Shown: positions 6,136 to 58,019 of the stretch, one piece after another | Numbering within the stretch: position 1 is the stretch's first letter | How the letters are laid out: every line of letters starts with the position of its first letter | Source of the DNA: Candidatus Shapirobacteria bacterium | GTDB lineage: Bacteria > Patescibacteriota > Microgenomatia > PFEM01 > JAPLYW01 | Length of the DNA: 61,822 nucleotides | Assembly (NCBI GenBank): GCA_026395335.1 | Contig: JAPLYW010000015.1 | Coordinates: forward strand, 1-61,822 | Direction of reading: 5' to 3' | The notes under the pieces: model-generated | Told to the model about the DNA's origin: nothing | Database searches by the model: none | The model's input: the letters and a program-made list of their open reading frames with translations, nothing else | Position numbers and translations under genes: made by a program

Positions 6136-9100
6136 ATGGATAATAAAATTATTGATTTTTCCAGATTAAAAATTAAGTTAGCCTCTCCAGAGACAATTCT
6201 TTCTTGGTCTAAAGGAGAAGTAACTAAACCAGAAACAATTAATTATCGAACATTAAAACCAGAAAAAGACGGTTTATTCTGTGAACGCATTTTTGGTCCA
6301 ACTAAAGATTGGGAATGTTATTGTGGTAAATATAAAAGAATTCGTTACAGAGGAATTATTTGCGATCGCTGTGGTGTTGAAGTAACCCAATCGCGTGTAC
6401 GCCGGGAAAGAATGGGCCATATTAATTTAGCTACGCCGGTGGCTCACATTTGGTTTTTTAAAGGTGGACCATCAAAACTTTCCTTGCTTTTAGATATTTC
6501 TCCTCATGAATTGGAATCTGTAATTTATTTTGCTCAATATTTAGTAACTGAAGCTGATCAGGAAAAGAAAAAAGAAATCTTAGCTCAAATAGATAAGGAA
6601 ACGGAAGAGAAGATCAAAGAGCTTAATAAAAATTTAGAAATTCAAATTAAAGAAATTGAAAAAGATAGCGAGAAAGGGATTAAAGAGACTCAGAAAAAAA
6701 TCAAAAATAAAGATCAAGAACTTTTAGCTTGTGAAGAACTTAAATTACGTGCTAAACAAAAAATTCAAAATTTAAGAGATGAAATAATTTTAGAACAGGA
6801 AAAACTTCATGAAAATGCTAAAGTCATGACAGAGTTGATCCAAAGAATTAAAGAATTAAGTCTTTTAAATGAAGAAGAATATTTCCGTTTGGCTTCTTAT
6901 AAAGCTTTATCTTTCTTTAAAATTGGTATGGGGGCTGAAGTCCTTTTGGAAGTTATAAAAAAACTTGATTTAGATAAACTTTTAGTTGATTTACGTCAAG
7001 AAGTTAAAGAAAGTACTGGGGCTCGTCATATTAAAGCCACTAAAAGGCTGATTCTAATTGAAGGAATGAGAAAAGCAGAAGTAAACCCAGCTTGGATGAT
7101 TATTCAAGTTTTACCGGTAATTCCTCCAGATTTACGGCCAATGGTTCAACTTTCTGGGGGTCGTTTTGCCACCAGTGATTTGAATGATCTTTATCGACGT
7201 GTTATTAATCGCAATAATCGTTTAAAACATTTAATTGATTTAGGAGCTCCGCAGATTATTTTAAGAAATGAAAAAAGAATGCTCCAGGAAGCTGTTGATA
7301 GTCTAATTGATGCCACTAAAAGTCCGGTTCAGCGTTTGCGCCGCCAAGTTAAACCTTCACGTTGTTTGTCCGATATTTTAAGAGGGAAACAAGGTCGTTT
7401 TCGTCAAAATCTTTTAGGGAAAAGAGTTGATTATTCCGGTCGTTCAGTTATTGTTGTCGGTCCTGATTTAAAGTTAACCCAGTGTGGTTTACCTAAAGAA
7501 ATGGCCTTAGAGATGTTTAAGCCTTTTGTTTTACATGAATTAATTTTGTCTGGTTTAGCTCCTAATGTTAAGAGCGCTAAATATTTTTTAGAACATCGTC
7601 CGCCGGAAGTTTATGATATTTTGGAAAAAATTACTAAAGATCATCTGGTTTTATTAAACCGGGCACCGACTTTACACAAATTAGGGATTCAAGCTTTTTA
7701 TCCAATTTTGGTTGAAGGTAATGCTATTAAGATTCATCCTTGTGTTTGTAAAGGTTATAATGCTGATTTTGACGGTGATCAGATGGCTGTTCATATTCCA
7801 TTAGGTAAAAAAGCTCAAGAAGAAGCTGTTAAATATTTAAGATCAGATAATAATCTTTTAAAACCTTCTGATGGTTCACCGGTGGCTATCCCGGATAAAG
7901 AAATGGCTTTAGGCTGTTATTTCCTAACTTCTGTTGATAGTCGTTTACCTCTATTTCCAACAATTTTCTCTGATAAAGAAGAAACAATTTTAGCTTATCA
8001 GGAAGAAAAAATAAATTTAAGACAATTTATTAAAGTTCGTTTAAATAAAGAAATTATTCAAACTACTGTTGGCCGAATTCTTTTTAACGAAGTCTTGCCG
8101 GAAGAAATGCCTTTTGTTAATGATAACATTCGTCAAAAAACTATTCAATCTTTAGTTACCAAAGCAATTCAAGTTTGTGAACGAGAAAAAGTGGTGAAAC
8201 TAATCGATAGTTTTAAAGATTTAGGCTTTTGTTTTTCAACAAAAGCTGGTTTATCAGCCGGTATTTTTGACTGTAAAATTTATCCACAAAAAAGTGAAAT
8301 TATTAAAGCCTCCAATGAAAAAGCTAACGTATTAGAGAAAAATTTTGCTGAAGGCTTAATTACAGAAGAAGAAAAACGTCGATTAGCTAAAGAAATTTGG
8401 ATGGATACTTCTGATGAGTTAGCTGATTTAACTTGGCAACAATTTGAACCAGAGAATAGCATCCGTTTAATTATTGACGCTGGTTTAGGTAGAACTTCTA
8501 AAGACCAAGTTAAACAACTTTCAGCGATGCAAGGTTTGGTAGTTGATCCAATGGGTAAAATTGTGGAGTTACCGATTAAGTCTAATTATCGGGAAGGTTT
8601 TTCCGTTTTTGAATACGTAACTTCTGCTCGCGGTTCGCGTAAAGGTTTAACTGATACTGCTTTGAAAACTTCTGATGCCGGTTATTTAACTCGTCGTTTA
8701 GTAGACGCAGTTCATGATCTTATTTTGCGAGAAGATGATTGTCATACAGATAAGGGAATTATTATCAGTCGTGAAAAAGGCAAAAAAAGAGCTGAGAAAT
8801 TTTTTGATCGTCTCAAGGGAAGAATTCTGGCAGCTTCGATAATTAATCCTAAAGATAAAAAAGTTTTATTAAAGAAAGGTGAATTAATAACTGAAGAAAA
8901 TATAGAAACCTTAGAACACCATAATATTTTAGAAGTTACGGTTCGTTCGCCTTTAACTTGTGAATCTAAATATGGTCTTTGTGTGGCTTGTTACGGTTGG
9001 GATCAAAGCAATAAAAAACTGGCTGAAATCGGAACTCCAGCTGGAGTTTTGGCCGCTCAATCAATTGGTGAACCAGGGACACAGTTAACTTTGAAGACTA

Positions 9101-10878: not shown

Positions 10879-12108
10879 ATGGAAACTGAAAATCTTCAGC
10901 CCAATCAAGAATTCACTCAAAAAGTGAAACAAGCAACTGAGTTTATTGGTCGTTCTATGGTCGAGGATTCGCTTCATTTAAAAGATAATCAAAAAATTCT
11001 TGTCATTTACGAACCTTTAGGCAAACCCTTAGCTGATGAAATTAAAAATTATTGTCGTGATTTTAAAAATCCGGCTAAAATTAATCTTTTTAAAAGAAAT
11101 TTAGAAGATGAAGTAGCGATTGCTTGTCAGGATTCTGACGAAGGCTTAGAAAAATATTTTGCCAGGTTAAAAGATTTAAATGATGAGGCTGATGCCGTTT
11201 TTCTTATCAGAGCTGATAAGAATCCGGAAATTTTTAATAAGATTCCTAAAAAAAGACAAGAGCTTTTTGAAAGTTTATCTCATCAAACTAACAAAAGGCG
11301 GATTGAAGGGACGGTTCCCTGGTGTTTGATTTATTGGCCGACACCTTATGAAGCCAAAAAAGAAAAATTAAAATATGAAGATTATTTTCAGGAGTTTATT
11401 GAATCCTGTAAACAGCCTTGGGAAAAGATTGCTAAAGCTCAGGAAAAATTAGTTAAAATTTTAGATCAAGGCAAGATTCTCGAATTTAAAGTTGATGAAG
11501 AAAATCGTGATCCTAAAAAAAGAACCAATTTAAAAATGAATATTGAAGGCATGAGTTTTTTAGGCACAACGATTGAGGCTAATTATCCTGGATCAGAAGT
11601 TTATTCCGCTCCGGTTTTAGATTCTGCCGAAGGCCAAGTTTACTTGACTGGTGAATATCTTTACGAGGGGAAAATGTTCAAAAATATTTATTTGCTTTTC
11701 AATCAAGGCAAAGTAGTTGGTTATTCAGCTGATAAAGGCGAACCTTTCTTAAAAGAGATTTTTGAGCGGACGGAGGCAAATCGTTATTTAGGTGAAATTG
11801 CTTTTGGGACAAACCCCGGTTTAGAAAAGAAATATTTTAGTGCTCTTTTGAATGAAAAAGTGGGTGGGAGTTTTCATTTTGCCTTAGGTCATTGCTATGA
11901 CAATGTTCAGAACCAAGATGGCAATTTAGTTAAAGTTAATAATGGTAATACTCAGGACAAGACTTCACTTCATTGGGATTTATCATCATTAATGCATCAA
12001 AAATATGGTGGAGGTCAAGTAATTTTAGATGGTAAAGTTATTCAGGAAAATGGTAGATTTTTAGATTCTGATTTGGGAATTTTAAACCTCAAGACTTTTG
12101 TTGTTTAA
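10879..12108 (+). CDS. Aminopeptidase, M29 (AmpS/PepS) family
   Basis: 409 aa with EIAFGTNPGL and LNEKVGGSFHFALGHCY motifs typical of M29 thermophilic metalloaminopeptidases. Inserted between rpsG and fusA. Confidence 0.75.
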   Translation: METENLQPNQEFTQKVKQATEFIGRSMVEDSLHLKDNQKILVIYEPLGKPLADEIKNYCRDFKNPAKINLFKRNLEDEVAIACQDSDEGLEKYFARLKDLNDEADAVFLIRADKNPEIFNKIPKKRQELFESLSHQTNKRRIEGTVPWCLIYWPTPYEAKKEKLKYEDYFQEFIESCKQPWEKIAKAQEKLVKILDQGKILEFKVDEENRDPKKRTNLKMNIEGMSFLGTTIEANYPGSEVYSAPVLDSAEGQVYLTGEYLYEGKMFKNIYLLFNQGKVVGYSADKGEPFLKEIFERTEANRYLGEIAFGTNPGLEKKYFSALLNEKVGGSFHFALGHCYDNVQNQDGNLVKVNNGNTQDKTSLHWDLSSLMHQKYGGGQVILDGKVIQENGRFLDSDLGILNLKTFVV

Positions 12109-12554
12109 AACAAACTTACAAAATCATAAAGATCTTTTCTGGCGATTTGGTAGCGCTCTTCTAAGTAATCAGCATTTTCTCCTTTATTTACCATTTCAGT
12201 AGCCTGATCAAAATCTCTGAAAAAATCACGATCTTTTTCGTTAGTTAAAGCCATAAAACCTCCCATTTCATCAAACTCTTCTTTTTTCCAACAGCTGAAC
12301 TCGTCATTAACTAATTCTTGAGCTAATTGAAAAAGGCTGACTTTTCTTAATATTTCTTTTCCAGTTAAATTTTCTAGATTAACCGTTTTTAAATGAGCTG
12401 CATTTAGGCTTTTTTTATTCCATCCCAACATTCCACCACCATGCACTAAACGGTAGCAAATGTCTCTTTCATTGGCATTTAAATCATCCCAAAGCCAAAA
12501 ACCATTTTTTTCACCTTTCCGCTCAACTGTTTGACTTTTTTGTTCAATACTCAT
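12105..12554 (-). CDS. Hypothetical protein; start uncertain, and the ORF-track version extends to 12731
   Basis: Start preferred at MSIEQKS (12554), which has TGATATAAT 10 nt upstream on the minus strand. The extra 59 N-terminal codons are low-complexity and overlap plus-strand promoter and terminator signals. No recognisable family. Confidence 0.45.
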   Translation of the reverse strand: MSIEQKSQTVERKGEKNGFWLWDDLNANERDICYRLVHGGGMLGWNKKSLNAAHLKTVNLENLTGKEILRKVSLFQLAQELVNDEFSCWKKEEFDEMGGFMALTNEKDRDFFRDFDQATEMVNKGENADYLEERYQIARKDLYDFVSLF

Positions 12555-12611
12555 TCTGGGTCTGATTATATCAAAATAACCGATAATAAAGTAAAAATAG
12601 CTAACGCTTTG

Positions 12612-12640
12612 TTGATTAAGGAATGATTTTCTGTTAAAAT
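12612..12640 (+). promoter_or_regulatory. Near-consensus extended -10 promoter upstream of a short hairpin-terminator
   Basis: TTGATT (12612-12617), 17-nt spacer ending in TGt, TAAAAT (12635-12640). Confidence 0.4.
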
Positions 12641-12656
12641 CAATTAGTTGAAGCAG

Positions 12657-12681
12657 CTGCTTCGGAAAGAAGCAGTTTTTT
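12657..12681 (+). terminator. Intrinsic-terminator-like hairpin with a competing upstream half-site
   Basis: CTGCTTC-GGAAA-GAAGCAG followed by TTTTTT. GAAGCAG at 12650-12656 can pair with the same CTGCTTC instead. Confidence 0.4.
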
Positions 12682-12687
12682 ATGCTC

Positions 12688-12700
12688 AAAGAGTTATAAT
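12688..12700 (+). promoter_or_regulatory. Conserved promoter motif AAAGAGTTATAAT (fusA proximal promoter)
   Basis: The identical 13-mer recurs at 32246-32258 and 32469-32481. TATAAT lies at 12695-12700. Confidence 0.5.
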
Positions 12701-12711
12701 TAAATTTAGAA

Positions 12712-12757
12712 TAAGAACCTGTGTTTTGCACAGAACCTTGTTTTTCGTAAACTTAAA
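12712..12757 (+). repeat. Junction repeat, hairpin type (copy before fusA)
   Basis: TAAGAACC-TGTG-TTTTG-CACA-GAACCTTGTTTTTCG-TAAACTTAAA-ATG. Confidence 0.8.
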
Positions 12758-14881
12758 ATGGCAGGAGAAAACAAAAACATCGAAAAAAGAGTTGTTCCGA
12801 TTGAAAAAGTTCGGAATATCGGTATCATTGCCCATATTGATGCCGGTAAAACTACTACCACTGAAAGAATTTTGTTTTATACCGGCCGCAGTTACAAAAT
12901 CGGTGATATTGATGAAGGAACAACCCAGATGGATTGGATGGTTCAGGAACGGGAAAGAGGTATTACTATTGTTTCCGCGGCCACGACCACTTTTTGGGAT
13001 GATCATCGGATCAATATTATTGACACCCCCGGACACGTTGATTTTACCGCTGAAGTAGAACGTTCCTTAAGAGTGTTGGATGGCGGGATTATTGTTTTTG
13101 ACGCTGAGGAAGGAGTTCAATCACAATCAGAAACAGTTTGGCGTCAGGCAGATCGTTATCATGTTCCCCGTTTGGCTTTTATTAATAAAATGGATAAACT
13201 TGGGGCTGATTTTGAACATACAGTGGGGATGATTGAAGACCGTTTGGAAGCTAATATTGCGGTGATTACCTATCCGATTGGCAGTGAGAAAGATTTTGTG
13301 GGCGTGGTTGATATTTTAAGTCAGAAAGCCTTAATTTGGGATGACCAAAAAGATAAATCCGGAGAAAAATTTGAAGAAAAAGAAATTCCAGCTGATTTGA
13401 AAGAGAAAGCTAAAAAATACAAAGAAAAGCTCGCTGAACAAGCCGCGGAGTTTGATGAAAAATTAACTGATAAATTTATTAATGGTGAAGAGATTAGTAA
13501 TGAAGAAATTATAGCTGGTTTACGTAAAGGTACAGTTGTTGGTAAGATTGTTCCGACTTACGCTGGGTCTTCTTTACGCAATAAAGGGGTTCAACCGATT
13601 TTAGATGGTGTGGTTAATTTTTTACCTTCACCTTTAGATATTCCGCCGGTTATGGGTATTAATCCCCAAACCAATCAAGAAGAAAAAAGAGTTAATGATC
13701 CTAATGGACCTTTAGCCGCTTTAGCTTTTAAAGTTCAAACCGATTCTCATGTTGGCCGTTTAACTTATTTACGGATTTATTCCGGAACAATCCGCTCCGG
13801 TATTGAAATTTACAATCCCACTCAGCGGAAAAAAGAAAGAGTTTCCCGTTTGCTTTTAATGCACGCTGACCAAAAAGAAACTATTGATAAGGCTGAAGCC
13901 GGAGAAATTGTGGCGGTGATTGGTTTTAAAGACACTACCACCGGAGATACTTTATGTGAGAAAGATAATCAAATTATTTTAGAATCAATTTCTTTTCCGG
14001 ATCCGGTTATTTCTTTAGCCATTGAGCCTAAAACCAAAGCTGATCAGGAAAAATTAGGCTATGCTTTGCGGGCTTTATCTGATGAAGATCCGACTTTCAG
14101 AATTAAATTTGATCCGGAAACCGGCCAGACCACGATTGCCGGTATGGGCGAGTTGCATTTGGAAATTTTAGTTGATCGTCTAAAGCGAGAATTTAATGTT
14201 TTGGCAAATACCGGCGCCCCTCAAGTTGCCTATAAAGAAACCATTAAAAAAACCGCCAAAGGTGAAGGTAAATACATTCGCCAATCTGGTGGTCGCGGTC
14301 AGTATGGCCATTGTTTAGTGCGGGTTGATCCTGTAAATCGGGGTGAAGGTTTTAAATTCTTAAATGAGATTAGAGGCGGAACTATTCCATCTGAATTTAT
14401 TCCGGCTGCAGAAAAAGGGATTAAAGAAGCCATGGGTAAAGGAGTTTTAGCTGGTTATCCTTTAGTCGATATGACAGTCGCTTTATATGACGGTTCTTTC
14501 CATGATGTTGATTCTTCGGAAATTGCTTTTAAGATTGCCGGTTCTATGGCTTTACAACAGGCTGTTATGGAAGCTGACCCAATTTTAATTGAACCGATTA
14601 TGAAACTGGAAGTGACGACTCCTGAAGATTTTATGGGAGATGTTATTGGTGATTTATCCAGTAAAAGAGCTCAAATTACCGAAACTCAGGATCGAGGGAA
14701 AATGAAAATCATTGTTTGTACAGTTCCTTTATCTGAACTTTCTGGCTATGCGACTTCTTTGCGAAGCTTAACTCAAGGACGGGCGACTTTTTATATGGAG
14801 CCAAGTCATTACGAAGAAGTTCCTTCCAATATTACTGAGAAAATTAAAGAAAAAAAGGTTGGTCAGCCAGTTATCAGATAG
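12758..14881 (+). CDS. fusA: Elongation factor G
   Basis: 707 aa with [34 protein letters not shown]. Confidence 0.97.
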
Positions 14882-16188: not shown

Positions 16189-16238
16189 TAAGAATCTGTC
16201 GCCTTAGGCGACAGAACCTTGTTTTTCGAAGAATCAAG
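16189..16238 (+). repeat. Junction repeat, hairpin type (copy before rpsJ)
   Basis: TAAGAATC-TGTCGCC-TTA-GGCGACA-GAACCTTGTTTTTCG-AAGAATCAAG-ATG. Confidence 0.8.
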
Positions 16239-16547
16239 ATGGCAAAAGGTAGAATAAGAGTACGTTTAAAATCGTATGATCATCGAGTTATCGATGAAAG
16301 CTGCGAAAAAATAATAGAAGTTGCTTTAGCTAGCGGATCTAAAGTAATTGGTCCTATTCCTCTTCCTTCCCAAAGAAAATTAATTTCCGTTATCTCTAGT
16401 CCTCATACTGATAAAAATTCCCAAGAACATTTTCAAATTATAACCCATAAGCGTTTAATTGACATTCTTGAACCGACAGAGAGAACAATTGACTCCTTAA
16501 TGCATTTAAATCTTCCTGCAGGTGTTGACATCGAAATTAGGATGTAA
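16239..16547 (+). CDS. rpsJ: 30S ribosomal protein S10
   Basis: 102 aa with [14 protein letters not shown] and [12 protein letters not shown]. Confidence 0.96.
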
Positions 16548-16611
16548 ATACGTTCAAAAAAATAACCTCTTTTTTTATTTACAAAATTCAAGCGTTTCGC
16601 TTTTTATTTGC

Positions 16612-16730
16612 TTGCAAAATCCAAGGTTTTACCTTATAATTACTCGTAATGGAGGTGAGGCTCTTCTAGAGTTAAACTATATTTTAAACAAAAGCACGTT
16701 TGCTTAAGAGTGCCTCCGGCGCTCTTTTTA
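16612..16730 (+). promoter_or_regulatory. Promoter plus structured leader plus terminator between rpsJ and rplC (candidate attenuator or small RNA)
   Basis: TTGCAA (16612-16617), 17 nt, TATAAT (16635-16640). GGAGGTGAGGCTCTT (16651-16665) can pair with AAGAGTGCCTCC (16706-16717), enclosing hairpins GTTAAA/TTTAAC and AAGCA/TGCTT. The competing hairpin AAGAGTGCC-TCC-GGCGCTCTT is followed by TTTTA. Confidence 0.5.
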
Positions 16731-16753
16731 GTGGTTAAAATCAAGATAAAAAT

Positions 16754-23136: not shown

Positions 23137-23189
23137 TAAGAACCCCCCGACGGTACGTCGGGAGAACCTTGTTTCTCGTAAAATTCGAA
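23137..23189 (+). repeat. Junction repeat, hairpin type (copy before rplF)
   Basis: TAAGAACC-CCCGACG-GTA-CGTCGGG-AGAACCTTGTTTCTCG-TAAAATTCGAA-ATG. Confidence 0.8.
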
Positions 23190-23759
23190 ATGTCAAGAAT
23201 AGGTAAACAACCAGTTATAATTCCTCAAGGAGTAACCGTAGAAATAAACGGTCAGTCTATTATTGTTAATGGGCCAAAAGGTTCTCTAACGATGAAATTT
23301 CGGCCGGAAATTAAAGTTATAATTGAGGGAGAAAAGATTATCGTTTCTACTAAAGATAATCAACGAGCCACTCGGGCTTTGTTTGGAACTGTCCGTAATT
23401 TAATTGCCAACATGATTGAAGGTGTGACTCAAGGTTTTATTAAAACTTTAAAGATTGTAGGAACTGGTTATCGGGTTAAATTAGAATCTGATTCCGAAGG
23501 AGAAAAAATTATTCTTTCTTTAGGTTTTTCTCATCCAGTAGAAGTAAGAGCTGTTGAAGGAACTAATTTTGAAATTGAAGGCAATGATTTAATCAAAATA
23601 AAAGGTTTAGATAAGGCCATAGTCGGACAATTGGCTGCCAAAATTAGAGACATTTATCCACCGGAAGTTTATAAAGGTAAAGGAATTCGTTATCAGGATG
23701 AAAAACCCAGAAGAAAAGCTGGCAAAGCCGGTAAAGCCGGAGCTGGAGGAGCTAAATAG
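23190..23759 (+). CDS. rplF: 50S ribosomal protein L6
   Basis: Starts MSRIGKQPVIIPQGV, the canonical L6 N-terminus. The ORF-track start at 23100 would translate the repeat element and overlap rpsH. Confidence 0.93.
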   Translation: MSRIGKQPVIIPQGVTVEINGQSIIVNGPKGSLTMKFRPEIKVIIEGEKIIVSTKDNQRATRALFGTVRNLIANMIEGVTQGFIKTLKIVGTGYRVKLESDSEGEKIILSLGFSHPVEVRAVEGTNFEIEGNDLIKIKGLDKAIVGQLAAKIRDIYPPEVYKGKGIRYQDEKPRRKAGKAGKAGAGGAK

Positions 23760-27002: not shown

Positions 27003-27761
27003 ATGATAACTATCAAAAGTAAAGAGGAAATTGAGATTATGCTTGAGGGAGGACGACGTTTAGCAGAAGTTATGGAAGAAGCGATTAATTTATCTAAAGC
27101 AGGTATTGCTCTTTATCAGCTTGAAGAAAATATTGAAAAATCAATTTTACAAAAGGGAGGACAACCTTCTTTTAAAATGGTGCCTAATTATCATTGGGCT
27201 AGTTGTTTGAATATTAACCAAGGTGTGGTTCATGGTATTCCTAATAAATACCATTTAAAAGAAAATGATTATCTAAGTTTGGATATTGGTTTTTTCTATA
27301 AAGATTTTCATACCGATATGTCCCGGACTATAAAAATTGAAAATGGGAAAGATAAAAAAAAAGAGGATAAATTTTTGGAAATCGGCAAAAAGGCTTTAGA
27401 AAAAGCTATTGAAGCAGCTAAATCCGGAAATCGCGTTGGTCATATTTCCGAAGCTATTGAAAAAACAGTCAGGATGGCTGGTTATAGTTCCGTAGAAGCT
27501 TTAACCGGGCATGGAATAGGTCATAGTTTACATGAAAATCCGCCAATCCCTTGTTTTTTGCCAGGTAATATTAAATCAACCCCTTTATTGAAAACAGGTA
27601 TGACTTTAGCTATAGAGGTTATTTATAATCAAGGTAGTTCCGATTTAGTTTTAGGTGAAGATAATTGGACGATTGAAACAGCTGATGGTAAATTAGCCGG
27701 ACTTTTTGAAGATACAGTGGCTATCTTTGAAGATAGGTCTATAGTTTTAACAAAAAAATAA
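27003..27761 (+). CDS. map: Methionine aminopeptidase type I
   Basis: VVHGIPN, DIGFFYKDFHTDMSRT, LTGHGIGHSLHE, AIEVIY. Confidence 0.95.
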   Translation: MITIKSKEEIEIMLEGGRRLAEVMEEAINLSKAGIALYQLEENIEKSILQKGGQPSFKMVPNYHWASCLNINQGVVHGIPNKYHLKENDYLSLDIGFFYKDFHTDMSRTIKIENGKDKKKEDKFLEIGKKALEKAIEAAKSGNRVGHISEAIEKTVRMAGYSSVEALTGHGIGHSLHENPPIPCFLPGNIKSTPLLKTGMTLAIEVIYNQGSSDLVLGEDNWTIETADGKLAGLFEDTVAIFEDRSIVLTKK

Positions 27762-27815
27762 GAACCTATCGAAGCGATAGAACCTTGTTTCTCTCCGGCG
27801 AAGCCGGATCGAAAT
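27759..27815 (+). repeat. Junction repeat, double-hairpin type (after map; its TAA is the map stop codon)
   Basis: TAAGAACC-TATCG-AAG-CGATA-GAACCTTGTTTCTC-TCCGGC-GAA-GCCGGA-TCGAAAT. Confidence 0.8.
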
Positions 27816-27850
27816 TAGCTTCTAGACTAAATGCTTTAGGTTTGGTAAAA

Positions 27851-27888
27851 TAAGAACCGTCCCCGACGTAATGTTGGGATAACCTTGG
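27851..27888 (+). repeat. Junction repeat, truncated hairpin type (immediately before infA ATG)
   Basis: TAAGAACC-GTCCCCGAC-GTAAT-GTTGGGAT-AACCTTGG-ATG. Confidence 0.7.
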
Positions 27889-28107
27889 ATGGATAAAAAA
27901 GAAAAAAAGTTAGAGTTTGAAGGTGAAGTGGTAGAAAGTCTACCAAATACTACTTTTCGCGTTAAGCTTAATGATACGCGGTTGGTTTTTTGTCATTTGG
28001 CAGGAAAAATGCGGCTGTATCATATAAAAGTTATGGCTGGGGATAAAGTTAGAGTAGAAATGACGCCTTACGATGAAACTAAGGGTAGAATTACACAAAG
28101 ATTTTAA
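27889..28107 (+). CDS. infA: Translation initiation factor IF-1
   Basis: 72 aa with [41 protein letters not shown]. Confidence 0.95.
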
Positions 28108-28166
28108 AATTCGAAATAAACAAGTTTGTTTCTCATAAAATTCGAAATAAACAAGTTTGTTTTTAA
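28107..28166 (+). repeat. Two tandem 30-nt hairpin-less junction-repeat units
   Basis: AAAATTCGAAATAAACAAGTTTGTTTCTCAT followed by AAAATTCGAAATAAACAAGTTTGTTTTTAAC, directly before the rpmJ ATG. Confidence 0.85.
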
Positions 28167-28170
28167 CAAA

Positions 28171-28284
28171 ATGAAAGTACAAGCAAGTGTAAAAAAAAGA
28201 TGTCGAAAATGTCGTTTAGTCCGGCGTCGCCGGAAGCTTTTTGTGATTTGCGAAAATCCGACTCATAAACAAAGACAAGGATAA
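28171..28284 (+). CDS. rpmJ: 50S ribosomal protein L36 (not in the ORF track; too short)
   Basis: Hand translation gives [37 protein letters not shown], the canonical L36 sequence and position between infA and rpsM. Confidence 0.93.
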
Positions 28285-29695: not shown

Positions 29696-30622
29696 ATGAT
29701 CGAACCAATTTTTAATATTAAAAGTGAACAAGAAACTGCCAATTTCGGTAAATTTATTATAGAACCTTTAGAGGAAGGTTTTGGCCAAACTCTAGGGAAT
29801 TCTTTACGTCGTGTTCTTTTGGCGGGTTTACCTGGAGCTGCCATTACCCAGATAAAAATTAATGGAGTCAAACATAAATTCTCGACTCTGGAAGGTATGA
29901 GCCAGGACATTATTGACCTGATTTTAAATTTAAAACAGGTTAGATTTAAGTATGATGGTGAAAAACCAGTCAAACTTGAATTAGAAAAAACCGGACCTGG
30001 ACAAATTAAGGCTGGTGATATTAAAACTTCAGCAGTTATTGAAGTTGTTAATAAAGACTTGGTTCTAGCTGATTTGGCTGATAAAAAAAGCAAATTAAAG
30101 TTAGAAATGGTGGTTGAAAAAGGTTTTGGTTATTTACCGGCTGAAACTAAAAAAAGCGAAAAATTAGGTGTAATGTCGGTTGATGCCGCTTTTAGTCCGG
30201 TTAAAAGAGTTAATTATCAAGTTGAATCAACTCGTGTTGGTCAAAGAACCGATCTTGATAAATTAATTTTAGAGATTACAACTGATGGGACAATTAAACC
30301 GAAAGAGGCGTTAAAAGCTAGCGCTAAGATTTTAATTGCCTTTTTCAATCAAGTTATTCAACCTAAAAAGGTTAGTTTAAAAGAAGAAGTGAAGCCTCAA
30401 GCATATGAAGAGGCGACAAAACTAACTTTAGAAGAGTTGGATTTGCCAACGAGAATTGTTAATGCTTTGCGTAAGACCGGCTATGGAACAGTTGCCGATC
30501 TTTTAGCTATTAATCCTGATAACTTGGCCAGAATTAAAAATCTGGGCGAAAAATCAATTAAAACTGTCCAGGCAGCTTTAGCCAAAAAGAATATCAAGTG
30601 GGAACCTGGAGAAAAAAAATAA
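29696..30622 (+). CDS. rpoA: DNA-directed RNA polymerase subunit alpha
   Basis: FGKFIIEPLEEGFGQTLGNSLRRVLL; C-terminal domain ELDLPTRIVNALRKTGYGTVADL. Confidence 0.96.
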   Translation: MIEPIFNIKSEQETANFGKFIIEPLEEGFGQTLGNSLRRVLLAGLPGAAITQIKINGVKHKFSTLEGMSQDIIDLILNLKQVRFKYDGEKPVKLELEKTGPGQIKAGDIKTSAVIEVVNKDLVLADLADKKSKLKLEMVVEKGFGYLPAETKKSEKLGVMSVDAAFSPVKRVNYQVESTRVGQRTDLDKLILEITTDGTIKPKEALKASAKILIAFFNQVIQPKKVSLKEEVKPQAYEEATKLTLEELDLPTRIVNALRKTGYGTVADLLAINPDNLARIKNLGEKSIKTVQAALAKKNIKWEPGEKK

Positions 30623-30778
30623 ACAAGTTTGTTTTTCGTAAAACTCGAATAAACAAGTTTTTCTCTCCGCCAACTGGCGGATCGAAATAAACAAGTTTGT
30701 TTTTTAGCAAAATAATGTTTTTATCAAGATAAGTAAGCTTGTTTTCACAGGCTCAAATAAACAAGTTTTTTTAATAAA
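30619..30778 (+). repeat. Array of five junction-repeat units filling the rpoA-rplQ spacer
   Basis: Units start at 30619, 30649, 30687, 30729 (degenerate) and 30757 with ATAA(A/G)nAAG(T/C)TT. Unit 2 carries TCTCCGCC-AACT-GGCGGATCGAAAT. Confidence 0.8.
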
Positions 30779-31231
30779 ATGAGACATCAAATTAAAGGTA
30801 AAAAACTTTCGCGCAATTCATCTCAAAGAAAGGCTTTGTTTAAAGGTCTGATAAACTCTTTGTTTATTCATGGGGCGATTGAAACAACTGAGAGTAAAGC
30901 CAAAGCGATTAGAGGTTTGGTTGATAAATTAATTACTAAAGGGAAAAAAGGTACTCTTCATTCTCGAAGATTAATTGGTGCTTTTTTACAGAACAAAAAA
31001 GTTGTTAATAAAATTGTTGATGAATTTGGGCCTCTTTTTGTTAAAAGAAGCAGTGGTTTCAGCCGGATGATTCGTTTAGGAAAAAGACGGGGAGATGACG
31101 CAATGATGGTTAAGCTGGAACTAATAGAAAAACCAGTAGTTAAAGTTGTAGAAGAAAAAGCTATTGTTACTAAAGCTAAAGATAAAAAGGAACAACCAGT
31201 TACTAAAATTGTAAAAACTAAGAAGAAATAA
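30779..31231 (+). CDS. rplQ: 50S ribosomal protein L17 with K-rich tail
   Basis: MRHQIKGKKLSRNSSQRKALFKGL, ETTESKAKAIRGLVDKLIT. Confidence 0.95.
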   Translation: MRHQIKGKKLSRNSSQRKALFKGLINSLFIHGAIETTESKAKAIRGLVDKLITKGKKGTLHSRRLIGAFLQNKKVVNKIVDEFGPLFVKRSSGFSRMIRLGKRRGDDAMMVKLELIEKPVVKVVEEKAIVTKAKDKKEQPVTKIVKTKKK

Positions 31232-31272
31232 GAACCTGCCTACGGCAGAACCTTGTTTTTCGAAGACTCAAA
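31229..31272 (+). repeat. Junction repeat, hairpin type (its TAA is the rplQ stop codon; ends at rplM ATG)
   Basis: TAAGAACC-TGCC-TAC-GGCA-GAACCTTGTTTTTCG-AAGACTCAAA-ATG. Confidence 0.8.
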
Positions 31273-31764
31273 ATGAAATTTAAAACTAAAGCTACCAAAG
31301 CTAACGAAATTAAAAGAGAATGGCATTTAATCGATGCCAAGGATCAGATTTTAGGTCGTATGGCTGTTAAAATCGCTTCATTGCTAATGGGTAAAGAAAA
31401 AACTTACTTAGTCAATTATTTGGATTGTGGTGATTATGTTGTAGTTATTAATGCCGAAAAGGTTCAAGTTACCGGTAGAAAGAGAGAACAAACGATTTTT
31501 TACCGTCATTCCGGTTATCCCGGGGGTTTTAAAGAAGTTAGTTTTAAACAGCAAATGGCTAAAGACCCAACTCAAATTATTCGTCATGCTGTTTCCGGTA
31601 TGCTGCCGAAAAATAAATTACGCGATATGAGACTTGCCAGATTAAAAATTTTTGCTGGTTCTAAGTATGATTTTGAAGATAAATTTGTGGTTAGCCCTAA
31701 AAAAGAAATTGTTTTAGATAAAGAAAAAGAAAGTAAAAAAGATGGAAAAACCAAAAAAGATTAA
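31273..31764 (+). CDS. rplM: 50S ribosomal protein L13
   Basis: REWHLIDAKDQILGRMA, GDYVVVINAEKV, YRHSGYPGG. Confidence 0.95.
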   Translation: MKFKTKATKANEIKREWHLIDAKDQILGRMAVKIASLLMGKEKTYLVNYLDCGDYVVVINAEKVQVTGRKREQTIFYRHSGYPGGFKEVSFKQQMAKDPTQIIRHAVSGMLPKNKLRDMRLARLKIFAGSKYDFEDKFVVSPKKEIVLDKEKESKKDGKTKKD

Positions 31765-32221: not shown

Positions 32222-32245
32222 TCTTCTGTAATAGATAATTTTTTC

Positions 32246-32258
32246 AAAGAGTTATAAT
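32246..32258 (+). promoter_or_regulatory. AAAGAGTTATAAT promoter motif, 5 nt before ATG (leaderless architecture)
   Basis: TATAAT at 32253-32258, then TAGTT, then ATG at 32264. Confidence 0.5.
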
Positions 32259-32263
32259 TAGTT

Positions 32264-32455: not shown

Positions 32456-32468
32456 ATTTCTTGTTTTT

Positions 32469-32481
32469 AAAGAGTTATAAT
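32469..32481 (+). promoter_or_regulatory. AAAGAGTTATAAT promoter motif, 5 nt before ATG (leaderless architecture)
   Basis: TATAAT at 32476-32481, then CAGTT, then ATG at 32487. Confidence 0.5.
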
Positions 32482-32486
32482 CAGTT

Positions 32487-36537: not shown

Positions 36538-36594
36538 TATAAGCGTAGCTTGCAAACTTTGTTTATAAGCGTAGCTTGCAAACTTCGTTTATAA
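36538..36594 (+). repeat. 2.2 copies of a 26-nt tandem repeat, each containing the near-palindrome AGCTTGCAAACT
   Basis: TATAAGCGTAGCTTGCAAACTTTGTT, then TATAAGCGTAGCTTGCAAACTTCGTT, then TATAA. Confidence 0.85.
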
Positions 36595-37310: not shown

Positions 37311-37384
37311 TCGGGGTGGCCGGTTCCGCCCCGGCGACCTCACGCACCCCATGCGTGCACTCTACCTATCTGAGCTACACCCCG
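37311..37384 (-). tRNA. tRNA-Pro (anticodon GGG) with a non-canonical T-loop; no encoded CCA
   Basis: Hand-folded cloverleaf: CGGGGTG/CACCCCG acceptor, GCTC/GAGT D-stem, CACGC/GCGTG anticodon stem, loop AT-GGG-GT, GCCGG/CCGGC T-stem. The T-loop reads GGCGGAA instead of TTCRANY. Confidence 0.75.
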
Positions 37385-44206: not shown

Positions 44207-44216
44207 GTATTAAAAA

Positions 44217-44520
44217 GCCTAGAAAGCTCATAAGCCAGATTTTGTTTAAACAGTCATCTATCTTTGCCCTCGAACATCGACACTCGGAAAAGACTCCTAA
44301 TAGCGTGTCAGTCGGAGGTTGCAGCGGGGAGGGTTACCTCGTTTCACCCCCTCCATAGCTTTAGGCGACGGAGGGACTCGTCTCTGTGGCCCTATCTAGT
44401 TCCAACTCACCAGGGGGTTGGAATGCCGTTTTGCAACGGCCACCCTGTCTTTTAGCTGTCTGGACTTTCCTCCCGCCTAAATATTTAATTTTTGGCGGGC
44501 AACTGTCCGGCTTTCTAGGC
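44217..44520 (-). ncRNA. rnpB: RNase P RNA (bacterial type A-like, compact)
   Basis: Minus strand contains GGGAGGAAAGTCCAGACAGC (P4 5' strand region) and ACAAAATCTGGCTTATGAGC (P4 3' strand). The P1 helix GCCTAGAAAGC/GCTTTCTAGGC closes the molecule. It is a GC-rich island in AT-rich DNA with a U-run after the 3' end. Confidence 0.88.
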
Positions 44521-46564: not shown

Positions 46565-46596
46565 TTTTTAGTTAAAATTTTAAATTAAAAAACAAG

Positions 46597-46617
46597 CCGG
46601 AGGAAATCCGGTTTTTT
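46597..46617 (+). terminator. Intrinsic terminator abutting the comM start
   Basis: CCGGA-GGAAA-TCCGG followed by TTTTTT, preceded by an A-run. The ATG at 46618 follows immediately. Confidence 0.55.
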
Positions 46618-52520: not shown

Positions 52521-52633
52521 TAAAGTGGATGAAATATAAATGGTTCTATTTCGAGTCTTCGAGAAACAAAACCATTTATTTCGATTTTTCTAAAAACAAG
52601 TTTCTTATTTTAAAAGGATATAAAAATGATTAA
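52517..52633 (+). other. Relic secF start fused to inserted repeat: a 38-codon bridging ORF from the secD ATGA overlap to a TAA overlapping the present secF ATG
   Basis: MIKWMKYKWFYF... duplicates the secF N-terminus MINWMKFKWFYF. The frame stays open through the 74-nt insert and ends in aATGATTAA. Confidence 0.6.
52552..52625 (+). repeat. Junction-repeat insert between the duplicated secF starts
   Basis: The reverse complement of 52549-52572 is TTGTTTCTCGAAGACTCGAAATAG, 21/24 identical to the rplM copy. A forward TCGATTTTTCTAAAAACAAGTTTCTT module follows. Confidence 0.7.
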
Positions 52634-54741: not shown

Positions 54742-54770
54742 GATCATATAATCCTCATAAATTTTATTTA

Positions 54771-54825
54771 TTTCGATCCGCCAACTGGCGGAGAGAAACA
54801 AGGTTCTGCCGAAGGCAGATTCTTA
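54771..54825 (-). repeat. Junction repeat, double-hairpin type, minus strand (its TAA is the cca stop codon)
   Basis: Minus strand reads TAAGAATC-TGCC-TTC-GGCA-GAACCTTGTTTCTC-TCCGCC-AGTT-GGCGGA-TCGAAA. Confidence 0.8.
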
Positions 54826-56306: not shown

Positions 56307-56360
56307 ATAAGGAAACCCTTGTTTTTCGAAGATTCAAAATAAGGAAACCCTTGTTTTAAA
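56307..56360 (+). repeat. Junction repeat, tandem hairpin-less form, in the recJ 5' UTR
   Basis: AATAAGGAAACCCTTGTTTT occurs at 56307-56326 and 56338-56357, separated by TCGAAGATTCA. TATAAT lies at 56292-56297. Confidence 0.75.
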
Positions 56361-58019
56361 ATGAAGTGGCATATTTTAGCTAAAATCAAAGAGCAAAAAA
56401 CAAAATTCAAAAATGAAGAAATAATTAAAATTCTTCTGAAAAATCGTGGTCTGAAAACCCCAAAAGAAATTGATAATTTTTTAAATCCCAAAAAGCCTGA
56501 AGAATTAAGTTTAAAGGAAGTCGGGCTTGATCCTTCAGAGATGAAGAAAGCAATTAAAAGAATTCAAAAAGCGATTGAAAAAAAAGAAAAAATTATTGTT
56601 TATGGTGATTATGATGCTGATGGTCTTTCTGGGACGGCGATTTTATGGGAAGCCCTTCATAACTTAAAAGCTCAAGTATTGCCTTTTATTCCAAGAAGAG
56701 AAGATGGGTACGGTTTAAAGATTGAAAAAATTAAAGAATTAGCCAGGGAAGGAGTTGGCTTGATTATTACGGTTGATCAGGGTATTGTTGCTAATCAGCA
56801 AGTGAGAGAAGCCAATAAACTCGGTATTGATGTCATTATCACCGACCATCATATTTTAAGTGACAAAAAACCAAAAGCTTTAGCGATTATTCATACGACT
56901 CAGTTAGCCGGTTGCGGTGTGGCCTGGTTTCTGGCGCAAGAATTATTTTTTATTTTTAAAGGAGAAAAAAATGAAAAAGGTTTAGATTTAGTAACAATAG
57001 GGACGATTGCCGATATGGTTCCTTTACTTGGTCCAAACCGCTGTTTAATGAAATACGGATTAAAGCTTTTACAGAAAACTAAACGCCCAGGCCTTTTGGC
57101 TTTATATGATTTTGCTAGTTTAAAAAAAGAAACCATTGATACTTTTGAGGTTAGTTATATTATTGGCCCGCGCTTAAATGCCGTTGGCCGTATGGATGAT
57201 CCTATGGAAGCTTTGAGACTACTTTGTACTTTCAATGAAGATCAGGCGATTAATTTGGCTCAAAAGATTAATCAAAAAAACGAAGAAAGAAAATCTTTAA
57301 TGGGGAAAATGACGATTTATGCTCGCAATCTTTGGTTGAAACAAGACCAAGAAAAATCTTTAATTTTTATTGATCATAATTCTTTCCATGAAGGAGTTAT
57401 TGGTCTAGTAGCTGGTAAATTAATGGAAGAGTTTTATCGACCGGCAGTTATAATTTCTCGGGGAGAAAAGTTTTCCAAAGGTTCAGCCCGTTCCATTAAT
57501 GAGTTTAATATAATTGAGGCGGTTAGAAGCTGTGCGGAAATTTTAGGACCTCACGGTGGACATCCTAAGGCTGCTGGTTTTACCATTGAAACCGAAAAAA
57601 TAACTCTTTTTAAGGAAAAACTGATGCTTTTGGCTGAAGAAAAATTAAAAGGTCAAAAGCTCTCACCGACTTTGAGAGTTGATTTAGAATTAGGTTTGGA
57701 AAATTTAACTTTTGATTTTTATAAAGATCTTGCTAAATTTGAGCCTTTTGGAGAAGGTAATCCTCAACCAGTTTTTTTAACCAAAGATGTTAAAATGGCT
57801 GATGCCAGAATTGTCGGTAAAGAAAAACAGCATTTAAGTTTGAAATTAAGAAGTTTAAGTGGCAAAATAATTTTTGAAGGGATTGGTTTTAATCTTGGAA
57901 AATTTTATTCAGATTTAAACCCGGATAAAAAAATTGATTTAGTTTATCAATTATTTTTAGACGAATGGCATAATGAAAAACATTTAAAGTTGAAAATAAA
58001 AGATTTAAAAACCTTTTAA
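56361..58019 (+). CDS. recJ: Single-stranded-DNA-specific exonuclease RecJ
   Basis: VYGDYDADGLSGTAIL, ITVDQG, VIITDHH, GGHPKAAGF. Confidence 0.94.
   Translation: MKWHILAKIKEQKTKFKNEEIIKILLKNRGLKTPKEIDNFLNPKKPEELSLKEVGLDPSEMKKAIKRIQKAIEKKEKIIVYGDYDADGLSGTAILWEALHNLKAQVLPFIPRREDGYGLKIEKIKELAREGVGLIITVDQGIVANQQVREANKLGIDVIITDHHILSDKKPKALAIIHTTQLAGCGVAWFLAQELFFIFKGEKNEKGLDLVTIGTIADMVPLLGPNRCLMKYGLKLLQKTKRPGLLALYDFASLKKETIDTFEVSYIIGPRLNAVGRMDDPMEALRLLCTFNEDQAINLAQKINQKNEERKSLMGKMTIYARNLWLKQDQEKSLIFIDHNSFHEGVIGLVAGKLMEEFYRPAVIISRGEKFSKGSARSINEFNIIEAVRSCAEILGPHGGHPKAAGFTIETEKITLFKEKLMLLAEEKLKGQKLSPTLRVDLELGLENLTFDFYKDLAKFEPFGEGNPQPVFLTKDVKMADARIVGKEKQHLSLKLRSLSGKIIFEGIGFNLGKFYSDLNPDKKIDLVYQLFLDEWHNEKHLKLKIKDLKTF

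Follow-up and report, generated by a model that had tools for sequence, protein, structure and literature searches.

Junction Repeats in Ribosomal Protein Operons of Patescibacteria, a Probable Family of Miniature Insertion Elements with an AAAT Target

Introduction

The described systems closest to the repeat reported here are the REP/BIME/REPIN-RAYT sequences of Proteobacteria, the RPE of Rickettsia, and the IS200/IS605 group of insertion sequences (IS608, ISDra2; PATEs). REP-type sequences are short, hairpin-forming, high-copy repeats that lie mostly outside genes at gene ends; they form modular mosaics and are nonautonomous, any enzyme acting in trans, and recognition of a single-stranded structure is plausible for them. 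RPE are palindromic selfish repeats that reside in frame in protein genes, including essential ones, as well as in intergenic regions, and members of the IS200/IS605 group lack terminal inverted repeats, produce no target duplication, and insert 3′ of a short target. All of these features recur in a repeat that sits at gene junctions in a 61,822-nt stretch of DNA (hereafter the window) from Candidatus Shapirobacteria, contig JAPLYW010000015.1 of assembly GCA_026395335.1. Genomes of the Patescibacteria, or candidate phyla radiation (CPR), are viewed as extremely streamlined, with little mobile DNA. A preliminary description of the window had listed seven copies of the repeat in and around the ribosomal protein (r-protein) operons and had offered two readings, an RNA that punctuates operons and a miniature mobile element. 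Here, we report that the junction repeat is probably a family of miniature nonautonomous insertion elements acting at the DNA level. In the best reading, it is a previously undescribed variant of the REP/RPE/IS200-605-MITE kind (MITE, miniature inverted-repeat transposable element) that is distinguished by AAAT targeting, codon restoration, and a core shared across phyla.

Results

Structure and Detection of the Unit

An alignment of copies from other genomes gives the full unit as aaaT^AAGAACC-(hp1)-AGAACC-TTGTTTYTC-(V2)-TCRAAAT^(A/G), where carets mark the unit ends, hp1 is a hairpin, and V2 is typically a mini-hairpin of 6–8 nt, for example GCTTCGC, and sometimes a longer GC hairpin, the "second hairpin" of the preliminary description. 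The conserved flanks around the variable hairpin are AAGAACC and AGAACCTTGTTTYTC. The unit reaches further in the 3′ direction than previously delineated and runs on through V2 to TCRAAAT, so that the 10–11 nt preceding the ATG are part of it. Units range from 42 to 81 nt across copies with a mode of 48 nt, long forms being about 45–60 nt and hairpin-less short forms about 22–38 nt. Adjacent units are direct tandem repeats, an arrangement that is frequent. The hp1 hairpin is highly diverse (105 distinct sequences among 141 copies), and a core of 23 nt is near-invariant across phyla. The unit ends, AAGAACC at the left and TCRAAAT at the right, are not inverted copies of each other, that is, the unit has no terminal inverted repeats. 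The consensus unit, read from the copies and with no scan for open reading frames (ORFs) made inside units, contains no ATG from its TAA up to the ATG at its end. Desantisbacteria copies carry a lineage-specific V2 module of 21–24 nt, G-N5-7-RAMGTCGTGGG-N3-4-GTC, in place of the mini-hairpin (loci L006, L014, L042, L044, L051, L056, L057, L063, L070, L096, and L103).

One genome per GTDB species was scanned for the pattern TAAGAAYC-N8-34-AGAACCTTGTTTYTC, which yielded at least 107 loci and at least 116 copies in about 50 assemblies or more. A covariance model trained on 14 copies, all of them from other genomes with the window excluded, was run over 100 sources (the window and loci L001–L099) and gave 123 copies. 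In the window, the model recovers six full copies at 37–60 bits (E value of 1e-5 or less), picks up the copy at infA weakly (E value about 4), and also detects several short-form units more weakly. The 14-mer GAACCTTGTTTYTC occurs exactly six times in the window, and with up to two mismatches it has nine matches compared with 2.6 ± 1.5 in shuffled sequence, where none of 100 shuffles reaches nine; the short-form core AAACAAGTTTGTTT has 19 matches compared with 4.7 ± 2.1. As the preliminary description had supposed, the repeat matches no described Rfam, REP, attC, or MITE family. A search of Rfam 15 with the window and eight loci, at gathering and E-value thresholds, found no family matching the units (the best score, for RAGATH-30, was 18 bits against a cutoff of 59.5), and a search of the literature by sequence and by topic found no description of the junction element.

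Filled and Empty Sites in Close Relatives

To compare orthologous junctions, we used relatives collected via RpoA, comprising 26 close loci (L108–L133) whose RpoA is 68–86% identical to that of the window and a set of 27 distant relatives with 35–46% RpoA identity. The end of map provides the clearest pair. L119 has gacgcctttAAAT directly followed by TAGgttctggac, an empty site, and L116 has AAGAACCTCCCGACGTAGTGTCGAGAGAACCTTGTTTCTCGAAGACTCGAAAT between gacgcctttAAAT and TAGgttctggac, with flanks as in L119 apart from two mismatches; the flanks of the two loci are about 96% identical, and the difference is exactly one 53-nt unit after AAAT. This site (AAAT^TAG) is also empty in L109, L111, L117, L120, L126, and L127, and holds different units in L112, L113, L114, L116, and L129, with yet another variant in the window. 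L113 and L129 have one unit there, and L112 and L114 have an additional, unlike unit at an upstream AAAT.

Other junctions behave in the same manner. Between rplQ and rplM, where 41 nt of a unit separate TAA from ATG in the window, every relative is element-free and has either a short spacer (e.g., taaGTTatg, taaGCCatg, or taaTTatg) or abutting or overlapping genes (13 relatives listed with their spacer). No element was found between rpsH and rplF in any of seven relatives, and the tuf–rpsJ junction is empty (GCTTAAGAGATAATG) in L094, whose EF-Tu is 81% identical, while the fusA site of the same locus holds three identical tandem units. The infA–rpmJ junction reads taaGAGatg or taaAAatg in relatives, apart from L116, which holds a single unit; the window holds two. 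Downstream of the infA −10 box and before the ATG, two full units are present in L112 and none in L114. The number of short units between rpoA and rplQ is 0, 1, 4, 5, or 7 (0 in most relatives, 1 in L113 and L129, 4 in L123, and 7 in L114). Between rplX and rplE, a single long unit is present in L114, three short units in L112, L113, and L129, and none in L119, even though the rplE DNA of L112, L113, and L129 is 96% identical to that of L114. In a MAFFT alignment of four loci, family units account for many of the indels of at least 10 nt at r-protein gene junctions. The units thus turn over rapidly, insertions are filtered by selection, and arrays grow through repeated insertion of unlike units; because junction occupancy varies among close relatives, the element is not a conserved operon regulator.

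Two further kinds of insertion were observed. A second, unrelated family of hairpin repeats, of the type CCTGAGC...GTCGAAGG, is inserted at junctions and is also polymorphic between near-identical relatives (rpmJ–rpsM of L113/L129, L114 at alignment columns 1326–1413, and the flanks of L032). The infA gene of L112, L113, and L129 has a 21-nt in-frame hairpin insertion, CCTATCTGCCGACAGGCAGGG, near its N-terminus (columns 6636–6657) that is absent from L114.

The AAAT Target and Copies in the Window

The four bases before TAAG are 60–85% A, and TCRAAA is followed by T (95%) and then by A, G, or T. A target-site duplication was looked for, and the longest string shared by the two flanks equals that of a shuffled control, with only AAAT, AT, or T in common. 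Based on this flank profile and the lack of a longer duplication, the element is best written as AAG...AAAT, inserted 3′ of (A)AAT. Insertion is site specific, after AAAT, and regenerates the target. AAAT^AAG yields TAA and AAAT^G remakes ATG, so insertion after AAAT accounts for the coincidence of units with stop and start codons; about 27% of copies supply the stop of the upstream gene, about 10% abut a start codon, and seven copies do both. The rplQ-TAA-unit-ATG-rplM layout of the window is what results if an AAATGA stop–start overlap is split after AAAT. The −10 boxes TAAAAT and TACAAT are also targeted, at infA (window and L112), rpsL (L102), and fusA (L094).

Every significant copy in the window is intergenic. 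All seven copies listed in the preliminary description are present, although the infA copy, counted there among the full ones, is truncated and degenerate, and the list lacked the short units at 56309–56362 on the plus strand and the set at 52527–52606 on the minus strand. The TAA of the unit is indeed the stop codon of map, rplQ, and cca, and the essential genes fusA, rpsJ, rplF, and rplM lie directly downstream of units without a Shine–Dalgarno (SD) sequence. The tandem short-form pair before rpmJ is recovered by TRF at 28106–28172 (period 31, 2.2 copies). The copies and the infA promoter are as follows:

12713..12759, plus strand: long unit of 47 nt, AAGAACC-TGTGTTTTGCACA-GAACCTTGTTTTTC-GTAAAC-TTAAAAT (59.8 bits, E value 2e-10), 3′ of the fusA promoter TATAAT (12695–12700); the fusA ATG takes its AT from the last two bases of the unit.
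16190..16240, plus strand: long unit between tuf and rpsJ with hp1 TGTCGCCTTAGGCGACA (37.2 bits); its terminal AT belongs to the rpsJ ATG.
23138..23191, plus strand: long unit between rpsH and rplF with hp1 CCCCGACGGTACGTCGGGA (42.8 bits); its terminal AT belongs to the rplF ATG.
27760..27815, plus strand: long unit at the map 3′ end whose second hairpin, TCCGGCGAAGCCGGA, is rich in GC (50.6 bits), inserted after AAAT; the preceding T plus AA forms the map stop TAA.
27823..27851, plus strand: infA promoter TAGACT-17 nt-TAAAAT with an upstream TG, from a promoter scan and outside the element; the sequence is kept in all relatives, and the next unit is inserted at its final AAAT.
27852..27890, plus strand: truncated, degenerate unit lying 3′ of the infA −10 box and before the infA ATG, with AAGAACC, an imperfect hairpin, and TAACCTTGG, lacking TTGTTTYTC...AAAT (10.8 bits).
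28108..28172, plus strand: short forms arrayed in the infA–rpmJ junction, where two units without a hairpin, AAACAAGTTTGTTTYTC...AAAT, come after a 3′ fragment, AATTCGAAAT.
30621..30780, plus strand: six units, short or degenerate, arrayed in the rpoA–rplQ junction, of which one has the hairpin TCCGCCAACTGGCGGA; the array starts with a unit overlapping the rpoA TAA and closes with one whose terminal AT belongs to the rplQ ATG.
31230..31274, plus strand: long unit of 45 nt that exactly fills the rplQ–rplM junction (50.8 bits); the preceding T plus AA is the rplQ stop, and the terminal AT plus G is the rplM start.
52527..52606, minus strand: two short units and a fragment, antisense to both flanking plus-strand genes (24.6 bits).
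54770..54824, minus strand: long unit with second hairpin TCCGCCAGTTGGCGGA after a cca-like gene, to which it gives the TAA stop (53.8 bits).
56309..56362, plus strand: short units in tandem, two in number, AAGGAAACCCTTGTTTT..., preceded by a promoter-like TATAAT and followed by the recJ ATG (25.4 bits).

According to a crude ORF call with 28 in-ORF copies set aside, intergenic copies co-oriented with both neighbors number 54 versus 14. Judged by the nearest two ORFs, 69 copies are co-oriented with both, 32 are opposed to both, and 21 are mixed, and about 30% of copies run antisense to the adjacent genes. At co-directional junctions of element-poor relatives, AAAT and ATTT occur on the sense strand in a ratio of 144:57 (72%, about 2.5-fold), and AAAT is found once per 56 nt at junctions compared with once per 133 nt in coding sequence (2.4 times denser). 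The orientation bias therefore follows from the excess of AAAT over ATTT on the sense strand, and selection at the RNA level is not needed to explain it.

Copies inside Genes

Several copies are located deep within long ORFs, mostly in the antisense orientation, which is open in three frames; the sense strand carries TAA. The genes concerned are lepA, a MEMO/AMMECR1 fusion, the gene for an RseP-like protease (rseP), priA, nfo (endonuclease IV, sense), and rplR (uL18, sense). When the lepA product is aligned with LepA of Aquifex (2ywe), a gap of 17 residues opens in the reference precisely where the element lies, and uL18 likewise has extra residues at its element. Each of the ten copies that are clearly internal measures 48 or 54 nt; among all 120 copies, only 42% have a length that is a multiple of three. 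Because the intragenic copies are strictly in frame and free of stops, the insert is translated rather than spliced out, and a tiny intron or excision at the RNA level was rejected.

Base Pairing, Covariation, and Strand Preference

The central CTTGTTTY can pair either with the upstream AAAUAAG (P1, 92% paired) or with the downstream RAAAUAAG (P2-extended, 87%), and in both pairings a T·G wobble is conserved (121 of 123 copies in P1 and 118 of 121 in P2-extended). The feet of the hairpins are conserved, symmetric internal loops (G-AAC-C/G-AAC-C and TC/TC), and the distal stems are variable. Changes on both sides of a pair were found for four of five modeled pairs in hp1, two of two in V2, and two of three in P2, whose inner pair variants include TTAT/ATAA, TTAC/GTAA, and TTGC/GCAA; 94.9% of alignment cells are paired compared with 82.8% in shuffles. 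The covarying hairpin of the preliminary description is therefore real. Its inference that compensation in the stems argues for a selected RNA is not supported, as there is no excess of G·U over A·C and the antisense strand folds better. The hp1 stems are nearly all Watson–Crick (472 pairs, with 11 G·T and 19 A·C), and the antisense strand is the better RNA folder in 93 of 119 copies, with a mean of −13.8 kcal/mol compared with −12.3 kcal/mol for the sense strand; with DNA folding parameters, the two strands are equal. Both sense-strand-specific stability and G·U enrichment in hp1 were looked for, and neither was seen. In copies situated right after −10 boxes, the transcript would start too late to include the 5′ strand of P1, and the orthologous hp1 of L116 is decaying by uncompensated mutations. 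A possible complementarity of ACCTTGTT to 16S rRNA positions 1499–1506 (the 1492R primer site), which falls in the buried decoding-center region, was dropped, the insertion behavior having made it unnecessary.

Distribution among Genomes

By exact-match scan, the element core is present in at least 50 or so metagenome-assembled genomes (MAGs). The hosts are mostly Patescibacteria, including Shapirobacteria, Parcubacteria/Paceibacterota, Berkelbacteria, Tagabacteria, Wildermuthbacteria, and many other MAGs; in addition, two MAGs of Desantisbacteria, a phylum that NCBI places outside the Patescibacteria group, carry many copies. With the covariance model, copies are found in only 6 of the 26 close relatives and in none of the 27 distant ones. 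Viruses are represented by a single contig (L161, IMG/VR), in which the copy lies within a 929-aa tail-fiber-like ORF; with just this one viral contig, phage carriage was discarded as an explanation. A presence in archaea was likewise rejected, as the "Pacearchaeota" contig in question encodes bacterial pilins and LigA and is probably a misbinned CPR contig.

A MAG labeled Clostridia (L069, GC content 0.58) has a single copy in a GC-rich, non-CPR contig. The single copies in L069 and L161 could reflect horizontal transfer or chimeric assembly. Many element-bearing MAGs carry the label "uncultured Gammaproteobacteria." In at least four of these assemblies (binchicken_co34_426, ERP108616_co1_405, SRP067234_co1_244, and binchicken_co134_900), proteins are 70–81% identical to tuf, rpoB, rpoC, rpsL, and other products of the window, and for this reason the labels look wrong.

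Other Features of the Window

A promoter-like box, AAAGAGTTATAAT, is repeated at 32222–32263, 32456–32486, and 12686–12700; it precedes the fusA unit and lies only 5–6 nt upstream of the ATG of two small genes, a distance that suggests leaderless mRNAs. Most of the 649-nt gap between an M29 peptidase gene and fusA is filled by a 183-aa ORF without a Pfam match (12105–12656, minus strand). The 206-nt rpsJ–rplC spacer (16548–16753), unusual inside an S10 operon, contains a strong promoter-like site, TTGCAA-17 nt-TATAAT, and an GGAGGTGA motif, and a 26-nt direct repeat, TATAAGCGTAGCTTGCAAACTTCGTT (36538–36594, 2.2 copies, 96% identity), lies in a 452-nt gene-poor spacer. On the minus strand, we found a bacterial RNase P RNA of class A (44215–44518, 119 bits) and a tRNA (37311–37384) that scores 44.5 bits against the Rfam tRNA model RF00005 (E value 1e-8). 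This tRNA was missed by ARAGORN and by the whole-window Rfam gathering scan; its anticodon loop AUGGGGU indicates Pro-GGG, and it has an odd T-loop, GGCGGAA instead of TTCGAAT.

Discussion

Of the two readings in the preliminary description, the miniature mobile element is the one strongly favored by the filled and empty sites, the polymorphism in unit number, the in-frame insertions in genes, and the wide but patchy distribution. Insertion polymorphism, the unit boundaries, insertions in coding sequence, and an orientation bias driven by the target are observed directly. As the element lies directly 3′ of (A)AAT and itself ends in AAAT, every insertion leaves a target on both sides, and repeated insertions build arrays of unlike units. 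AAATAA stops, AAATG starts, AAATGA overlaps, and TAAAAT −10 boxes can accept the element without being destroyed, and elsewhere it survives only as an in-frame, stop-free, and mostly antisense insertion in tolerant protein loops. The mechanism we propose is more conjectural. We infer that a structure-specific single-strand DNA enzyme acting in trans, similar to an HUH/Y1 transposase, mobilizes the element; such an enzyme would recognize the feet of the hairpins and locate AAAT by means of the internal guide CTTGTTTY. Judged by their features, substrates of HUH/Y1 single-strand transposases (IS200/IS605 MITEs and REP-RAYT) appear to be the closest match, because the element has no terminal inverted repeats, no target-site duplication, a footed hairpin near each end, and an internal complement of both junctions.

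Several results weigh against a mobile element of this kind. In a survey of about 0.77 Mb of flanking sequence with 804 ORFs at 107 loci, we found no transposase and no recurrent neighbor gene, and the window has no transposase either. An autonomous longer version, sought as left ends without right ends, was not found, nor was a consistent target duplication beyond AAAT, AT, or T. The fourth flank position, which faces the Y of the guide, does not covary with it (p = 0.59), and the element strand is the strand of positive GC skew in 72 of 123 copies, where the 8-kb loci are a crude proxy for replication direction. Carriage by phages is close to nil. The hairpin sequences are variable, unlike the conserved hairpins bound by known Y1 transposases. 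Moreover, selfish repeats do not usually keep a 23-nt core nearly unchanged from one phylum to another, and such a core could point to a host function instead.

The other reading, which the preliminary description preferred and which we judge rather unlikely, is that the hairpins act in the sense mRNA as a processing, stability, or partial-termination signal and that the A-rich UCRAAAUG is a start or re-initiation region independent of SD that brings UAA near AUG, a role that would be either primary or secondarily gained by a mobile element. It draws on the 54 versus 14 co-oriented intergenic copies, on the units that supply stops (about 27%), abut starts (about 10%), or do both (seven copies), on the start of fusA, rpsJ, rplF, and rplM directly after a unit and without SD, on compensatory changes in the base-paired P1, P2, hp1, and V2, and on an RNase Y gene within the window. 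However, orthologous junctions do not consistently hold the element, which is absent in relatives with 66–86% protein identity that do with taaGTTatg; antisense (about 30%) and intragenic copies are common; and the AAAT target accounts for both the orientation bias and the codon coincidences. The better fold of the antisense strand in 93 of 119 copies, hp1 stems without G·U enrichment, the loss of the P1 5′ strand in copies after −10 boxes, and the uncompensated decay of hp1 in L116 argue in the same direction. Dispersed bidirectional intrinsic terminators or attenuators, comparable to pairs of DNA uptake sequences or REPs that double as terminators, are a distinctly improbable alternative. 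A loose consensus scan does mark most long units on both strands (antisense tail TTCTTATTTT, sense tail ACCTTGTTTT), and the two copies with a second hairpin lie at gene 3′ ends (map and cca). Yet for most copies, which lie inside operons and separate essential genes transcribed together, termination would do harm, the sense orientation has a 6-nt AGAACC spacer between the stem and the T-run, short forms lack a GC-rich stem, and canonical terminators in the window are of another design (e.g., 46590–46617 and 12655–12683). A secondary RNA role as a stabilizer, processing site, or help in re-initiation may exist; nothing in the comparative data requires it or a terminator role.

It is very improbable that the units are pure slippage repeats, similar to variable number tandem repeats (VNTRs) or MIRU, that expand and contract in place without transposition. 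The 0 to 7 units between rpoA and rplQ, the three identical tandem units of L094, and the period-31 pair at 28106–28172 would fit slippage, but slippage cannot seed new sites, and units are found at many unrelated junctions and inside genes, arrays mix unrelated hairpins, and the core is shared by about 50 genomes or more. A double-strand DNA site, either bound by a protein or serving as an uptake signal that is enriched by uptake and recombination in competent CPR bacteria, would be compatible with a high-copy short core that occurs in both orientations, sometimes in coding sequence, and in related lineages. We nevertheless give this explanation hardly any credence, as the element arrives as a block of 45–55 nt and not by point mutation, its conserved mismatched loops and T·G wobble indicate a folded single strand and not duplex symmetry, and one viral contig only carries it. 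Returning to the mobile element, a more far-reaching joint version, which is possible although doubtful, is that it represents an undescribed mobilization system that is Patescibacteria-wide and extends to other candidate phyla, a self-guided mini-element that is safe for operons. As part of this version, one 8-nt guide, CTTGTTTY, might pair with the AAAT target as well as with the two ends of the element, each time via the conserved T·G wobble, an enzyme in trans, or an RNA or ribozyme-like activity, might read only the mismatched hairpin feet, and a shaped or domesticated element might restore stop and start codons and fold so as to set UAA beside AUG and so permit SD-independent re-initiation in streamlined genomes.

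In r-protein operons of close relatives, this 48-nt element is among the commonest junction differences, and it is found inside essential genes as well. Annotation will need to mask or model it, because it gives rise to false ORF extensions, altered stop codons, and extra protein loops. The units may serve as fine-scale strain markers in the manner of MIRU-VNTR, and the identity of the core across phyla offers a tractable marker of horizontal exchange among candidate phyla of groundwater and sediment. The design of the element, with its AAAT target, its restored stop and start codons, and a guide that complements both ends, shows a route to being tolerated in operons with almost no intergenic space, and the element points to a structure-specific enzyme acting on single-stranded DNA (or RNA) in organisms that are hard to culture.

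Comparison with Known Systems

Among the systems introduced above, REP/REPIN sequences differ from the element in their GTAG-type 5′ tetranucleotide, in forming inverted REPIN pairs rather than direct tandems, and in being lineage specific, whereas the core of the element is kept across phyla. The hairpins of the element also vary within a genome, and in-frame intragenic copies occur; no RAYT was found among the 804 flanking ORFs or between inverted element pairs. RPE, compared by size and host, are 100–150 bp long and confined to Rickettsia, whereas the element is about 48 nt long, is found in Patescibacteria and Desantisbacteria, and has a defined AAAT site and tandem arrays. With the IS200/IS605 group, the element appears from its sequence to share hairpins near both ends (hp1 on the left and V2 on the right) and an internal complement of the cleavage site resembling the GL/GR guides. 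Unlike in that group, its single central guide pairs with both ends, its hairpin stems are not conserved, no TnpA (Y1_Tnp) was found in the element flanks, and its strand agrees only weakly with local GC skew, where a strong replication-strand bias is reported for IS608; PATEs, in addition, are far larger.

The mycobacterial MIRU resemble the junction units in being 40–100 bp tandem units in operons, in overlapping stops and starts of co-directional genes, and in a copy number that varies among strains. MIRU, however, carry small translation-coupling ORFs, whereas no internal ORF was read in the consensus junction unit, and the sequences are unrelated; junction units also occur inside genes and in antisense. 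As in attC sites, which are recognized as a folded single strand, a conserved foot is combined with a variable terminal structure, and gene boundaries are marked. In contrast to attC, neither strand of the consensus has R″/R′ boxes (RYYYAAC/GTTRRRY), there is no integrase or cassette organization, and copies also reside inside genes. Pneumococcal BOX and the Correia repeats of Neisseria are likewise modular, small intergenic repeats with stable structure and a possible effect on transcript processing; Correia repeats have terminal inverted repeats and a TA duplication, BOX is built of boxA, boxB, and boxC modules, and neither has the element core or the AAAT site. Classical MITEs differ in their terminal inverted repeats and fixed-length target duplication, while the junction element is defined by its AAG...AAAT unit placed 3′ of (A)AAT.

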